UHGV virus genome: UHGV-0079874
Direction: 5' to 3' (one strand)
Source: a virus
Length of the DNA stretch: 11,460 nucleotides
Shown: positions 154 to 9,271 of the stretch, one piece after another
How positions within the stretch are numbered: position 1 is the first letter of the stretch
Layout of the letters: every line of letters begins with the position of its first letter
The notes under the pieces: model-generated
What the model saw: only the letters and a program-made list of their open reading frames with translations
The model's database searches: none
Told to the model about the DNA's origin: nothing
Made by a program: the position numbers and the translations under genes

Positions 154-1506
<1,353 letters not shown>

Positions 1507-1622: not shown

Positions 1623-1904
1623 ATGGGTACTATTGCAACTAAAAGCAAGAAAGCGGCTCGCATCGAGTCAGCCTTGCTGAACAAACTGGCACTGATGGGG
1701 CAGAAGACATTCGCTCGAGCAATGGGGGTTCCTGAATATCAGGTAAGCCGATGGAAGAATGGTTTCTTCTCGCAGGTAAGCATGATGCTTGCTGTTCTGG
1801 AATACGGAATCGAAGACGATGAAATGGCTGAATTGACTAAGCGGCTTGCCGATTACCTGACAAAAGAAAAAGCCCCGAAGAACGGCGAATTCTTCGAGGC
1901 CTAA
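1623..1904 (+). CDS. cII: CII transcriptional activator (93 aa)
   Basis: Core RIESALLNK...SRWK...[11 protein letters not shown]...DDEMA aligns with lambda CII; position after cro/nutR. Confidence 0.9.
1635..1648 (-). promoter_or_regulatory. PRE-type CII-binding site TTGC-N6-TTGC (read on minus strand) inside the 5' end of cII
   Basis: Plus strand reads GCAActaaaaGCAA, i.e. TTGCttttagTTGC on the minus strand, at the same relative position as lambda PRE, directing leftward transcription toward cI. Confidence 0.6.
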
Positions 1905-1938: not shown

Positions 1939-2085
1939 ATGACAAAACAACTCAGTCCTTACCAGGACAAAATTCACAAACACATACTACGTGATCGCTT
2001 CCTGTCCAGCTTCAAGCAGCCTGGTCGATTCCGGGCTGAGTTGGAAAAAGTGAAGCTGATGCAGAAGGAGAAAGGTCATGAGTAA
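1939..2085 (+). CDS. Small hypothetical protein (48 aa) between cII and the replication initiator
   Basis: Own reading (below the track cutoff): ATG at 1939 preceded by GGGAG at 1928-1932 with 6-nt spacing; basic protein [21 protein letters not shown]...; its stop overlaps the start of the next gene. Confidence 0.5.
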
Positions 2086-2938
2086 TCTTGCAACCGTAAC
2101 ACATTTAAGGCCTTCACAACGGCCTGTGGAGCGTCGTGTGGCAGAAGTTGAAGATGGTTATACCCGTCTTGCAAATGCCCTGTATGAAGAGCTTATCGGC
2201 GCAGATTTAACGAAAAATCAGAGCAAGGTTGCCCACGCCATATGCCGTAAAACATACGGCTACGGTAAAAAGATGGATCGCATCTCTGATAGTCAGTTAG
2301 CTCAAATTACCAGGCTGCCAAGACAGAAGGTAAACAAGGCCAAGAATGAGCTTATCGCGATGAAGGTTATCCTTCGCGAAGGCCAGCAAATCGGGCCTAA
2401 CAAGAACATCGAGGAATGGCAAATAGAAGGGTGTCACTACTCTGGTGATAATGTCACTGCATTGGTGACAAAAAGTGTCACCAAAACGGTGACAGCGCTG
2501 TCACCAAAACAGGGACACACAAAAGAAACTATTACAAAAGAAAAAAGAAATAATAAAAACACTATGTCCGAAAGTGTTCGGACGGAGTGTGAAAAATCAC
2601 ATGACCGTCACGAAGAAACCGACAAGGCATTCGAGGAAATATTCTGGTGTGCAGGCATGCGGAAAGCCGGGAAGAAAAACGCAGCTTCGGCATTCAGAAC
2701 ACAGTTCAGGGAATGGCGTAAAACTACCAGGGGTACGGCAAGCGAGTTTGCCACGATGCTGGCAGAAGACATCGCATGCAGGAATGGTAAGCAGTTCGGA
2801 TTCGACAGGTTGTTACCATCGAGCTACCTGAACGGTCAACGCTGGAACGACGAGAAGCCAGAAACTATTCAACCACAATCCAAACCATCATCCGCAATCA
2901 CCGTATCGAAAACTGGCTACGTGTTTTTCGACAGGTGA
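2078..2938 (+). CDS. Replication initiator with lambda-O-like N-terminal domain; C-terminal domain unlike what I recall of lambda O
   Basis: N-terminal [61 protein letters not shown] is close to lambda O; iteron origin embedded in the linker; C-terminal about 100 aa not recognised. Confidence 0.85.
2428..2560. repeat. Candidate replication origin: 3-4 palindromic iterons (GGTGA-N-TGTCAC) at about 20-24 bp periodicity, then an A/T-rich tract
   Basis: GGTGATAATGTCAC (2444-2457), GGTGACAAAAAGTGTCACC (2464-2482), GGTGACAGCGCTGTCACC (2488-2505), partial copies at 2428-2440 and 2511-2520, then AAAAGAAACTATTACAAAAGAAAAAAGAAATAATAAAAAC (2521-2560); inside the initiator gene as in lambda ori. Confidence 0.7.
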
Positions 2939-2941
2939 ACC

Positions 2942-3049
2942 ATGAAATCAAAAATCAAATCGCTACTGGTCGCTGGTTATAACCACGGCTGGTTAAGTAT
3001 TTCGTTTGTCGATTTCTGGTTTAAAAATCTCAATCTGAGGGAATCATGA
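2942..3049 (+). CDS. Possible small ORF (35 aa) coupled to the primase-helicase gene
   Basis: Own reading: ATG at 2942 just after the initiator stop (AGGTGA upstream); TGA at 3047-3049 overlaps the helicase ATG at 3046 (ATGA). No recognisable family; could be spurious. Confidence 0.25.
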   Translation: MKSKIKSLLVAGYNHGWLSISFVDFWFKNLNLRES

Positions 3050-4926
3050 CGCCAAGTGAACTTAGCGACCTGCTTTGGGCGCAGGTTGACAGGGTGGCTC
3101 CGCACCTGTTGCCAAACGGCAAGAAAGAGGGGCATGAGTGGGTTGCCGGTAACGTCAATGGTGACAAGGGAAACAGCCTTAAGGTCAACCTTAGCGGCAA
3201 GAAAAAATGGGCTGATTTCGCTGAGGGAGACGGCGGTGACATACTTGATTTGTGGATGGCATGTCGTGGAATTAACCTGCATCAGGCTATGCAGGAAGCG
3301 AAAGCATTTCTCGGTATCAAGGATGACGATCACCATTTCGATGCCAAACGTGAGAAAAAATTCTCCAGACCTGATCGCAAGAAAATCGCCCGCTACGTTA
3401 CCAGAACAGAATCCCATCTTGAGTACCTGCAATCGCGTGGCATATCGCCAGAAGTCGTAAAGCGCTACGAGGTTGTCAGCGGCAAGGTGTGGAATGGAGA
3501 ACGAGAACTTGATGCACTGGTGCTTCCGTACAAACGCGATGGTGAGTTGTTGCAGGTCAAGCGAATCAGCACTGAGCGCCCGGACGGGAAGAAAGTCATT
3601 ATGGCAGAAGGTGATTGCGAACCTTGTCTGTTCGGATGGCAGGCTCTGGACGCTGGCGTGAGGGCGGTTGTACTTTGCGAAGGCGAAATTGATTGTATGA
3701 GCTATGCGCAATACGGCATCTCGGCGTTATCCGTGCCGTTTGGTGGAGGGAAAGGCGCTAAGCAACAGTGGATTGAGTTTGAGTACCACAACCTCGACAG
3801 GTTTGAGGAAATATTCATCTCGATGGACGTTGATGATGTTGGTCGTGAAGCCGCAAGGGAAATCGCAAGCCGACTCGGTGAACATCGTTGCCGTCTTGTT
3901 ACTCTGCCGTACAAAGACATCAACGAATGCCTGATGAACGGTGTTACCGAGGATGAAATCTGGCAGTACATCGGCACGGCATCCTACTTTGATCCTGAAG
4001 AACTCTACAGCGCGCGAGAGTTTTACCAGGACACTATCAACGCTTTCTACGGCAAGCAGCAGTATCTGTTTAATCCACCGTGGGAATCTCTGGCAGATAA
4101 ATTCCAGTTTCGTGAGGCCGAGTTGACGCTGGTCAATGGTGTGAACGGTCACGGAAAAACGGAGGTTGTCGGGCATATGGCACTTGAGGCAATGCGTCAG
4201 GGTGTGAAGACGTGCATCGCGTCACTTGAGCTGAAGCCTGGTATTCTCCTTAAGCGCCTTACCCGTCAGGCGACGTGCTGCAAGATGCCGCCAGTGCTGG
4301 AAATTGACTCTGCATTTAAATTTTATGACGAAAGACTTTGGGTGTTTGGCCTGACTGGAACGGCGAAAGCCGACAGGCTGATCGAAATATTCGACTACGC
4401 TCGCCGCCGATACGGCATCCAGTTATTCATCATCGACAGCCTGATGAAATGCGGCATAGGTGACGATGACTATAACGGGCAGAAAGCATTTGTTGACTCG
4501 ATTTGTGACTTCAAAAACAAAACAAACTCCCACGTCATTCTCGTTACTCACTCCAGAAAAGGAGATAGCGAAGAAAAACCAACCGGGAAAATGGACGTAA
4601 AAGGCTCTGGAGCGATAACAGACCTGACAGACAACCTTTTTATCATCTGGCGTAACAAGGCTCGCGAGAGAGCGTTACAGAGAGTTCAGAGTGGTGAAAA
4701 GATGTCAGAGAAGGACGAACAGCTACTGGCATCTCCGGCATCTGTTTTGATGCTTGAAAAACAACGTAACGGCGAAGGTTGGGAAGGTGGTGTCCCGTTG
4801 TTCCTTGACGAGCAATCGCACCAGTTCCTGCAACTTGAATCAGGATCGCCTTATAGCTACATCGCCAATATGCCGAAATCGGAATATGACGAGGCGTGGC
4901 GACAGGAAAACGTGACGGAGTATTAA
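3046..4926 (+). CDS. Bifunctional DNA primase-helicase (TOPRIM domain plus DnaB/T7-gp4-like SF4 helicase), 626 aa
   Basis: TOPRIM motifs VVLCEGEIDCMS and FISMDVDDVG; Walker A GVNGHGKT, Walker B LFIIDSLMK, and further helicase-like motifs (HVILVTHSRK, EKQRNGEG). No CHC2 zinc-finger Cys pattern seen. Occupies the lambda P slot. Confidence 0.9.
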   Translation: MTPSELSDLLWAQVDRVAPHLLPNGKKEGHEWVAGNVNGDKGNSLKVNLSGKKKWADFAEGDGGDILDLWMACRGINLHQAMQEAKAFLGIKDDDHHFDAKREKKFSRPDRKKIARYVTRTESHLEYLQSRGISPEVVKRYEVVSGKVWNGERELDALVLPYKRDGELLQVKRISTERPDGKKVIMAEGDCEPCLFGWQALDAGVRAVVLCEGEIDCMSYAQYGISALSVPFGGGKGAKQQWIEFEYHNLDRFEEIFISMDVDDVGREAAREIASRLGEHRCRLVTLPYKDINECLMNGVTEDEIWQYIGTASYFDPEELYSAREFYQDTINAFYGKQQYLFNPPWESLADKFQFREAELTLVNGVNGHGKTEVVGHMALEAMRQGVKTCIASLELKPGILLKRLTRQATCCKMPPVLEIDSAFKFYDERLWVFGLTGTAKADRLIEIFDYARRRYGIQLFIIDSLMKCGIGDDDYNGQKAFVDSICDFKNKTNSHVILVTHSRKGDSEEKPTGKMDVKGSGAITDLTDNLFIIWRNKARERALQRVQSGEKMSEKDEQLLASPASVLMLEKQRNGEGWEGGVPLFLDEQSHQFLQLESGSPYSYIANMPKSEYDEAWRQENVTEY

Positions 4927-5010
4927 ATGACCATCTACATCACTGAGCTTGTAACAGGCCTGCTGGTAATCGCAGGCCTTTTTATTTGGGAGAGAGTAAA
5001 TCGTGGCTGA
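4927..5010 (+). CDS. Small hydrophobic peptide (27 aa), predicted single transmembrane helix
   Basis: Own reading: ATG directly after the helicase TAA (TAAATG), GGAG 6 nt upstream; MTIYITELVTGLLVIAGLFIWERVNRG. Confidence 0.45.
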   Translation: MTIYITELVTGLLVIAGLFIWERVNRG

Positions 5011-5209
5011 GTTAATTTTCTCTGCATTGAGGATTCTCGGTGCTATGTGGATGGTGGCGACGTTCATTGTTGTTGCCAGCAGTTTTGTCCGGTTGGTAGG
5101 CGAAGGTAAAGACCTGGTGGGTGTGCTTTTCGGTAGCATTTTCCTGTGGGTGATTATCGGTGTTATGCCTGTTGTCGTAGCAAAAGTGGCGTGGCGTTTT
5201 GTGAGTTGA
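5003..5209 (+). CDS. Small membrane protein (68 aa, two predicted TM segments)
   Basis: GTG start with GGGAGAG 8 nt upstream; overlaps the previous small ORF by 8 nt; very hydrophobic. Antisense and alternate-frame ORFs here look like artefacts. Confidence 0.55.
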   Translation: MAELIFSALRILGAMWMVATFIVVASSFVRLVGEGKDLVGVLFGSIFLWVIIGVMPVVVAKVAWRFVS

Positions 5210-8603: not shown

Positions 8604-8645
8604 CAGCATGATTGCCACGGATGGCAACATATTAACGGCATAATA

Positions 8646-8700
8646 TTGACTTTTTGAATAAAGTTGGGTAAATTTGACCCAGCGATGGGTTAATTCGCTC
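8646..8700 (+). promoter_or_regulatory. PR' late promoter with qut site: -35 TTGACT (8646-8651), -10 TAAATT (8669-8674), start near 8681, -10-like pause element AGCGAT at +1..+6
   Basis: 17-bp spacer between hexamers; the sequence is near-identical to the lambda PR'/qut region as recalled. Confidence 0.7.
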
Positions 8701-8874
8701 GTTGTGGTAGTGAGATGAAAAGAGGCGGCGCTTACTACCGATTCCGCCTAGTTGGTCACTTCGACGTATCGTCTGGAACTCCAACCATCGCAGGCTGAGA
8801 GGTCTGCAAAATGCAATCCCGAAACAGTTCGCAGGTAATAGTTAGAGCCTGCATAACGGTTTCGGGATTTTTTA
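8681..8874 (+). ncRNA. 6S RNA-like short PR' transcript (about 194 nt) ending at tR'
   Basis: Distance from the inferred PR' start to the tR' U-tract matches the lambda 6S RNA length; boundaries approximate. Confidence 0.55.
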
Positions 8875-8876
8875 TA
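8815..8876 (+). terminator. tR' intrinsic terminator
   Basis: Long hairpin (ATCCCGAAAC ... GTTTCGGGAT) followed by TTTTTTAT. Confidence 0.8.
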
Positions 8877-9271
8877 TCTGTGCAACAGGTAAGAGCATTC
8901 TCCCTTATGGGGCTTGGCTTAAATGCATTGAGTGCTCTTTCCGTTGTGCTGAATTAAGCGAGTACCGGAAGCAGAACCGGATCACCAAATGCGTACAGGC
9001 GTCATCGCCGCCCAGCAACAGCACGACCCAAACTGAGCCGTAGCCACTGGCTATCCTGAATTCATCAGTGATAGTTACGCTGCGGCCTTCTACATATGAC
9101 CTTCGTGAAAGCGGGTGGCAAGAGGCTGCGCTAACAACCTCATGCCGTTTTGCCCGTGCATATCGGTCACGAACAAATCTGATTACTAAACACAGTAGCC
9201 TGGATTTGTTCTATCAGTAATCGACCTTATTCCTAATTAAATAGAGCAAATCCCCTTATTGGGGGTAAGAC

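Follow-up and report, generated by a model that had tools for sequence, protein, structure and literature searches.

How does a lambdoid phage that carries an O-like replication initiator, and no P gene beside it, bring a helicase to its origin? The question is raised by a stretch of 11,460 nucleotides (11.5 kb) of the UHGV virus genome UHGV-0079874, hereafter the window, which is a segment of a lambdoid prophage running from the immunity region through the lysis genes. Positions 2078-4926 are a three-gene replication cassette in the early right operon of a prophage of the Sf101/mEp043/ES18 type and match phage ES18 gene by gene: an initiator with a generic core and a C-terminal tail of the ITVSKxGYVF class is followed by a gene of 35 amino acids (aa) and by a primase-helicase gene. 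The answer that we favor, and consider probable, is that the initiator opens an origin located inside its own gene and recruits a phage-encoded primase-helicase of the T7 gene 4 protein (gp4)/Twinkle type, in place of λ P and the host DnaB. A tblastn search of the window for P-type (PF06992), DnaC-type or λ O C-terminal-type coding sequences found none (λ P and a Pasteurellaceae P gave no hit at E<0.09), and the DnaB reference matched only within the SF4 domain of the primase-helicase itself.

The N-terminal domain of the initiator belongs to the λ O family. The Pfam model Phage_rep_O (PF04492) matches residues 20-114 (E 1.1e-37, 128.8 bits for a cut-off of 28.7), TIGR01610 (phage_O_Nterm) scores 105.4 bits (cut-off 45.5) and the protein falls in the PHROG 'replication initiation O-like' families, while the gene is 99.8% identical at the nucleotide level to the 'replication protein O' gene of Sf101. 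BLASTP aligns λ O with residues 1-157 at 49% identity (49-52% to λ O residues 1-155); a search of Protein Data Bank (PDB) sequences with the initiator returned nothing meaningful. The gene also contains the elements expected of an origin. Its four 19-bp iterons are inverted repeats of the form TGTCAC-N7-GTGACA, a pattern that occurs five times in the window for 0.41 expected and that reaches five in none of 200 shuffles. A repeat search recovered the iterons as direct-repeat families and as inverted pairs, and an alignment with λ ori places all four at the positions of the four λ iterons. The fifth occurrence, at 3148-3166 inside the primase-helicase gene, has two mismatches and was set aside as probably fortuitous. 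The A-rich stretch that follows the iterons is nearly the same as the A-rich segment of λ ori, and the divergence from λ starts directly after it, at a palindrome with a 13-bp stem whose single-stranded DNA hairpin has a predicted energy of -11.9 kcal/mol (z = -5.6). This palindrome is common to the window, ES18 and the Shiga toxin (Stx) phage F451 but not to λ, whose origin has a different palindrome at that place, and it travels with the type of C-terminal domain associated with the primase-helicase. Its conservation may be incidental since it lies in conserved coding sequence; that it serves as an origin element is something we only infer.

Past residue 157 the resemblance to λ ends. Residues 158-286 show no BLASTP similarity to λ O residues 156-299 and reach 19% identity only when the alignment is forced. 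A distant homology between the C-domain family and the C-terminal 144 residues of λ O was also considered, and rejected at an hhalign probability of 0.04. The first-pass annotation had read this gene, from its letters, as an initiator with a λ O-like N-terminal domain, an internal iteron origin and a C-terminal domain unlike that of λ O; the domain searches and alignments agree with it on all three counts, the C-terminal domain not being a standard λ O one.

Within this C-terminal region, two parts of different behavior can be distinguished. Distant relatives of the domain (36-48% identity) match residues 181-263 only, and their neighbors are of several kinds: DnaB-type helicases in Microbulbifer and in a gammaproteobacterial metagenome-assembled genome, IstB/DnaC-type AAA+ loaders in Actinobacillus and Haemophilus, and λ P-type loaders in Rodentibacter. 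In the alignment these residues form a core of about 83 positions (FW-AGM-K-GK…QFGFD-L-P-YLN-RW-DE-P) which is followed by a partner-dependent tail. A profile of the core retrieved 20,456 matches at E ≤ 1e-3 and 903 at E ≤ 1e-10 among 1.84 billion representative proteins; it usually occupies the C-terminal half of proteins of 240-330 aa or stands alone as a protein of 100-130 aa. The N-domains of ten core-bearing proteins were Phage_rep_O, HTH_36/DnaD_N, DUF1376 or nothing recognized, and no Pfam model covers the core in these ten proteins or in the initiator relatives scanned. Matches to C-domain homologs, mostly short and free of Pfam labels, served as alignment rows and not to establish architectures. 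An AlphaFold2 model built from a 38-sequence alignment (predicted local distance difference test, pLDDT, 76.5) gives a core of three to four helices at pLDDT 82-92 and a tail at about 50, a value that suggests that the tail is probably disordered on its own; an earlier model from a six-sequence alignment (pLDDT 57) was set aside as too poor. The profile of the C-domain family matched no PDB sequence and the model resembled no solved structure convincingly. Among predicted viral folds, the closest were C-terminal portions of replication proteins of the 'replisome organizer', RepA-like, DUF1376 and HTH kinds (best E 6e-6, the others weak). Judged from these sequences, the C-terminal region appears to consist of a generic core and of a partner-specific tail of about 23 residues that tracks the type of partner.

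The correspondence between tail and partner was surveyed in 154 additional viral loci with diverse cores and 20 genomic loci, which together yielded 100 distinct core-plus-tail sequences. The class of the tail predicted the class of the partner in all 100. Tails of the ITVSKxGYVF class had a primase-helicase downstream in 57 of the 57 distinct sequences with downstream room. Two further tail classes accompany primase-helicases, …REYELYMFM… with the most diverged clade (about 52% identical; four distinct sequences) and …NQVFVDYD… with an intermediate one (58-65%; four sequences), and the tail subclasses track the primase-helicase subclades at about 52%, 58-65% and at least 68% identity. The tail …YGxxxxPxWA… goes with a DnaC-type loader (eight sequences), three other classes with a P-type loader (14 sequences) and a long tail with a DnaB-type helicase (four sequences). 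Within one cluster of cores that share at least 60% identity, DnaC-type and P-type partners both occur and each type has a tail of its own; the DnaC-associated tail is also found on two distant core clusters. Such a switch of the tail together with the partner inside one core cluster is what would be expected if the tail were a partner-specific contact.

Natural chimeras tell a similar story, in the form of a two-by-two mosaic. The window joins its own N-domain to the primase-helicase type of C-domain. ES18 has the same type of C-domain (95% identical to that of the window) behind a λ-type N-domain (86% to λ). Coliphage PhiR12_1 carries the N-domain of the window (100% at the protein level, 99.8% in DNA over nucleotides 1-473 of the gene) with the C-domain of λ (100%), λ P (97%) and ren, and λ itself closes the table. 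In Stx2a_F451/F403 the C-domain of the window type follows yet another, unrelated N-domain, HTH_36, and three 21-bp direct repeats lie at the junction in Stx2a_F451. The C-domain, the 35-aa gene and the primase-helicase are one unit, which is found behind N-terminal DNA-binding domains of three kinds. The crossovers lie within or beside the conserved A-rich segment: the identity with PhiR12_1 stops at nucleotide 473 of the gene (window 2550), and similarity begins at 2505 for ES18-type phages and at 2554 for Stx-type phages. The N-domain and its iterons swap freely, and the C-domain stays with the primase-helicase. In a species-level genome collection, all ten loci with a C-domain at least 52% identical adjoin a primase-helicase homolog (in Shimwellia, Pseudescherichia, Erwinia, Leclercia, Pantoea, Pseudocitrobacter, Citrobacter and Providencia); among viral contigs the enzyme lies downstream of the C-domain in 79 of 80, the exception stopping at the contig edge. 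The three-gene order is kept in nine of these ten diverged genomic loci and in 79 of the 80 viral contigs. This co-inheritance supports an adaptor role of the initiator C-terminal domain. The first-pass annotation had predicted this role for the domain as a whole; its idea stands as regards the association with the primase-helicase, and has to be narrowed since most of the domain (residues 181-263) is generic and only the last 23 residues or so track the partner.

The third protein of the cassette (626 aa) falls in phrog_239, 'DNA primase/helicase' (E 1.6e-171). The T7 gp4 structures 5ikn, 6n7i and 1q57 match its residues 191-539 at E about 1e-23 (5.6e-23) and the Twinkle structure 8e2l at 7e-14; aligned with T7 gp4A, it is 27% identical over 523 positions. 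Pfam Toprim_2 covers residues 209-296 (E 3e-12, 47.1 bits, cut-off 22.1), in which E212, D261, D263 and D291 align with the EGEID, DMDEAG and KDANEC segments of T7 gp4. The helicase domain is matched by AAA_25 at 27.9 bits (cut-off 27) and retains Walker A (GVNGHGKT, residues 365-372), E395, the Walker B D464, H502 and GSGA (residues 520-523), which align with motifs H1, H1a, H2, H3 and H4 of T7 gp4; for the arginine finger the alignment gives no unequivocal position. A Pfam search found no DnaB N-terminal domain (PF00772), which the DnaB-type partners of related initiators possess. The fusion of TOPRIM motifs with Walker A and B that had been recognized at first reading is borne out, both folds being found.

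Two features of this enzyme deserve mention in their own right. Window positions 4828-4923 encode a conserved acidic C-terminal tail with a terminal aromatic residue (…SPYSYIANMPKSEYDEAWRQENVTEY). In T7 gp4 the comparable tail (…DWSNDTDF) binds the T7 DNA polymerase; by analogy the tail of the window protein may contact a host replisome protein, as no phage polymerase is encoded here. Secondly, the alleles of Stx phages encode a primase-helicase of 968 aa with a 342-aa intein exactly in Walker A, between GHGK and T, after K371 (L004:2996-5902, which is Stx2a_F451; Min27/L003; and the viral contigs L027, L220 and L221), the window allele being free of it. The intein starts with Ala, has DHLW in block B and Cys in block F and ends in THN before Thr+1, a class-3 'WCT' signature, and it matches the LAGLIDADG and Hint families of Pfam. 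The annotation of Min27 splits the intein-bearing gene into 'P' and 'DNA primase'; related 'ShP-Sfv primase' inteins have been listed (PMC2807308).

Put together, these elements suggest the following course of events. By analogy with λ O, the N-domain of the initiator would bind the four iterons inside its own gene and open the A-rich stretch. The C-terminal region, probably through residues 264-286, would then contact the phage hexameric gp4/Twinkle-type primase-helicase and bring it to the opened origin. The helicase would unwind the fork, and primers would be laid if the zinc-less primase domain is active, in which case the phage could dispense with the host DnaB, DnaC and DnaG. Synthesis would fall to the host DNA polymerase III (Pol III), as this region contains no polymerase gene of the phage. 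The 35-aa protein would be translationally coupled to the primase-helicase. A more ambitious extension, possible in our eyes and put forward tentatively, is that swappable three-part initiators exist, made of an N-domain, a generic core and a peptide of about 20-40 residues that alone chooses a gp4-type, DnaB-type, DnaC-type or P-type partner, and that the peptide here docks an active zinc-less primase-helicase and so frees the phage from the host DnaB, DnaC and DnaG. Such a three-part class would number more than 20,000 representative clusters.

Several points weigh against recruitment of an active primase-helicase by the initiator. In the searchable literature, which leaves most subscription journals outside, no experiment, biochemical or genetic, was found on this module, nor an assay of this primase-helicase family. 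The DnaB_C model reaches 23.8 bits on the helicase domain, under its curated cut-off of 27. The association of tail and partner could be plain linkage and not functional co-adaptation, because the tail DNA adjoins the partner gene, and in the primase-helicase class (cluster 8), where core, tail and partner belong to a single clade, these data cannot tell core and tail apart. T7 gp4 needs no loader to assemble on single-stranded DNA, so that the initiator may not have to recruit the enzyme. Lastly, primase activity is not assured, since all four zinc ligands of a DnaG/gp4-type ribbon are lost: T7 gp4 deprived of its zinc domain makes no template-directed primers, and metazoan Twinkle has neither the zinc ligands nor primase activity.

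This last point is the chief uncertainty. A first alternative is that the enzyme acts as a helicase only, its primase half being an inactive relic as in metazoan Twinkle, with the host DnaG laying the primers, a situation comparable to that of P22 gp18/gp12. The sole cysteine in the first 190 residues is C73 and there is no CxxC or CxxH, hence no zinc finger, as the first-pass annotation had also noticed from the missing cysteine cluster. The region nevertheless still aligns with DnaG models, and for this reason it is best read, on sequence grounds, as a zinc ribbon with lost ligands. TIGR01391 (dnaG) aligns residues 26-143 with model positions 27-155 (E 9.5e-10), at a score of 37.9 that is far under the family cut-off of 283.6. 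In a weak match to Aquifex DnaG (2au3, E 1.4), 'kkWaDFaeGdGGDil' lies over 'qiFkCFgCGvGGDai', the second knuckle reading D-F-A-E for C-F-G-C, and none of the four Cys/His ligands remains. The zinc domain of T7 gp4 is required for template recognition. On the other hand, the acidic residues E212, D261, D263 and D291 of the TOPRIM domain are all retained, and the N-terminal 200 residues, cysteine-less ribbon included, are strongly conserved in homologs down to 69% overall identity, which argues for selection on a function. We regard a mere helicase as somewhat unlikely.

A second alternative does away with recruitment. The enzyme would load itself on single-stranded DNA at the A-rich stretch or the hairpin, in the manner of the self-assembling T7 gp4, the core and the tail would serve oligomerization, melting or the binding of a host factor, and the co-inheritance would amount to linkage. 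The core does occur with four unrelated partner types and as a stand-alone protein of 100-130 aa, which indicates that it has a partner-independent role, and the clustering of the crossovers in the A-rich segment would be enough to hold together everything to its right. Against this reading speak the tail class, which fits the partner class in 100 of 100 distinct sequences, the tail that switches between DnaC-type and P-type partners in one close core cluster, and the same DnaC-associated motif on two distant ones; there is also the precedent of λ O, whose C-terminal part contacts P. This alternative is in our opinion unlikely, and docking of the primase-helicase by the initiator remains the preferred explanation.

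The 35-aa gene, absent from the first-pass annotation, is conserved between the initiator and primase-helicase genes. Its product differs from ES18 gp60 by two residues and matches phrog_21848 (E 4e-26). The open reading frame (ORF) is a real gene, a usual but not constant member of the cassette. That its product, and not the initiator tail, bridges the initiator and the primase-helicase or acts as a loader is very unlikely, for even though it keeps exactly 35 aa and a stop overlapping the next start in diverged modules whose enzymes are only about 52% identical, and has a PHROG family of its own, the gene is missing from a few otherwise intact modules (L014/L119, with an 11-nt gap, and L165, with a 41-nt gap) and a domain scan of the protein found no recognizable domain. 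In some contigs a free-standing gene for an HNH-type homing endonuclease lies between the 35-aa gene and the start of the primase-helicase (L037:5471-5947, and also L042, L057, L062, L092, L100, L150 and L216; …NGYLRVTL…HRLVAQLFIPNP…VNHINGDKSDN…). It is the second kind of mobile element, besides the intein, that targets the primase-helicase gene.

Table 1. Positions of the cassette features and of the genes to their left in the window.
Feature	Position	Strand	Remarks
cI-type repressor	555-1187	-	gene left of cro
cII	1623-1904		after cro
48-aa ORF	1939-2085		between cII and the initiator gene
O-like replication initiator gene, 286 aa	2078-2938	+	equivalent to ES18 gp59
N-terminal origin-binding domain, aa 1-157	2078-2548	+	similarity to λ O
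Four 19-bp iterons	2432-2517		TGTCAC-N7-GTGACA; starts 2432, 2452, 2476, 2499
A-rich stretch	2519-2558		presumed DNA-unwinding element; follows the iterons
Palindrome ACACTATGTCCGAA / TTCGGACGGAGTGT	2559-2590		inverted repeat adjoining the A-rich stretch on its right
Generic helical core, aa 181-263	2618-2866	+	conserved irrespective of the partner type
Partner-specific C-terminal tail, aa 264-286	2867-2935	+	proposed docking peptide for the primase-helicase
35-aa gene (MKSKIKSLLVAGYNHGWLSISFVDFWFKNLNLRES)	2942-3049	+	stop overlaps the primase-helicase start (ATGA); equivalent to ES18 gp60
T7-gp4-like bifunctional primase-helicase gene, 626 aa	3046-4926	+	equivalent to ES18 gp61
Degenerate cysteine-less zinc-ribbon-like region, aa ~20-90	3103-3315	+	weak DnaG alignments
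TOPRIM domain, aa 209-296	3670-3933	+	E212, D261, D263, D291
SF4 (DnaB/gp4-type) helicase domain, aa 355-594	4108-4827	+	AAA_25 and DnaB_C models

The surroundings of the cassette are those of a lambdoid early region. To the right of the primase-helicase follow ninB, a Dam methylase gene, ninG, the Q antiterminator and the lysis genes. Over the cassette region the DNA is 99.8% identical to that of the Shigella phage Sf101 and 99.4% to that of coliphage mEp043, and 298 of 5426 complete E. coli genomes (about 5%) carry the cassette. A few neighboring features were recorded in passing. Directly downstream of cI, at the site of rexAB in λ, the minus strand encodes a 158-aa ORF (154-630) with an N-terminal hydrophobic segment followed by a Cys, which looks like a secreted protein or lipoprotein; the ORF may be a moron or an exclusion gene expressed in the lysogen. 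Between the primase-helicase and ninB, in the position of ES18 gp62, lies a very hydrophobic ORF of 68 aa with a GTG start (5003-5209). About 670 bp without a long ORF (8604-9271) separate the Q antiterminator gene from the holin-like gene. This interval is the place of pR'/qut, and in Stx phages also of tRNA and toxin genes; tRNA and Rfam scans of the window, 8604-9271 included, gave no match. The small gene upstream of the initiator (the 48-aa ORF) is called 'DUF2740 family protein' in E. coli genome records, and the RefSeq entries of Sf101, mEp043 and SEN22 (NC_027398, NC_019706, NC_028696) place the label 'tail protein' around the region of the 48-aa and 35-aa ORFs, which looks like the misannotation of a small gene of the early operon.

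The module itself is already known, and its gene content and reading have been in GenBank annotation since 2005. The ES18 record describes gp59 as 'similar to phage lambda gpO', a rep_origin 'similar to lambda ori', gp60 as 'function unknown' and gp61 as 'putative primase/helicase; similar to phage T7 gene 4'. The same genes were described in epsilon34, in which only the N-terminal 162 residues match λ O (PMC2629481), and the replication module of Sf101 was found to match that of mEp043 (PMC4159516). Fagerlund et al. classified the related arrangement of Stx phages, an HTH_36 protein with a 'primase', as replication type 'Eru5', with Stx2a_F403 as reference (PMC8951638). What is added here, modest as a discovery, is the two-by-two mosaic, the third gene and the distinction, within the adaptor, between a generic core and a tail that is specific to the partner. 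The cassette sits in 'Eru5' Shiga-toxin phages linked to severe outbreaks (PMC8951638), and, since toxin is produced in the wake of phage replication, the way in which such phages replicate matters for toxin output. The natural chimeras represented by the window, ES18, PhiR12_1 and λ are moreover ready controls for the way in which lambdoid initiators choose their helicase system.

The closest known systems are ES18 genes 59-60-61 and their counterparts in epsilon34 (50-52), Sf101, mEp043 and SEN22, which form the same three-gene cassette at the same place after cII. The DNA of ES18 is about 88% identical to the window from the A-rich stretch onward; ES18 and epsilon34 differ in having an N-domain of λ specificity and λ-type iterons, whereas the N-domain of the window is distinct (49% to ES18), as are its iterons. 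The Eru5 Stx phages (F403, F451, Min27, phi24B) share the core and tail, the 35-aa gene and the primase-helicase (97-98% DNA identity), and are set apart by the HTH_36 N-domain, the three 21-bp repeats in place of four iterons and the 342-aa intein in Walker A.

With the O/P/ori system of λ, the cassette has in common the N-domain family, the iterons, A-rich stretch and palindrome inside the gene, the position in the operon and an initiator of two domains, of which the C-terminal one is associated with the partner. It departs from λ by an unrelated C-domain and the lack of P, the primase-helicase replacing a loader that hijacks the host helicase. Like T7 gp4 and Twinkle, the enzyme is a colinear TOPRIM-linker-SF4 helicase in one chain with retained catalytic motifs, and like gp4 it has an acidic C-terminus ending in an aromatic residue (…NVTEY in the window, …DTDF in gp4). 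It is only 27% identical to gp4, however, has lost the zinc ligands as metazoan Twinkle has, carries an insertion of about 20 residues near the C-terminal end of the helicase domain, and belongs to a temperate phage without a polymerase gene in the region, which presumably must use the host Pol III.

As regards strategy, P22 gp18/gp12, SPP1 G38P, RSF1010 RepC/RepA/RepB' and P4 alpha likewise use an initiator that binds iterons to bring the element's own helicase to the origin, and rely on the host Pol III. RSF1010 and P4 bring their own primase too, and replicate in E. coli without DnaB, DnaC or DnaG. P22 gp12 is a DnaB-type helicase without primase, P4 alpha combines an SF3 helicase and the origin binder in one fusion protein, and RSF1010 distributes the three activities over three proteins; the protein families of all these systems differ from those found in the window.

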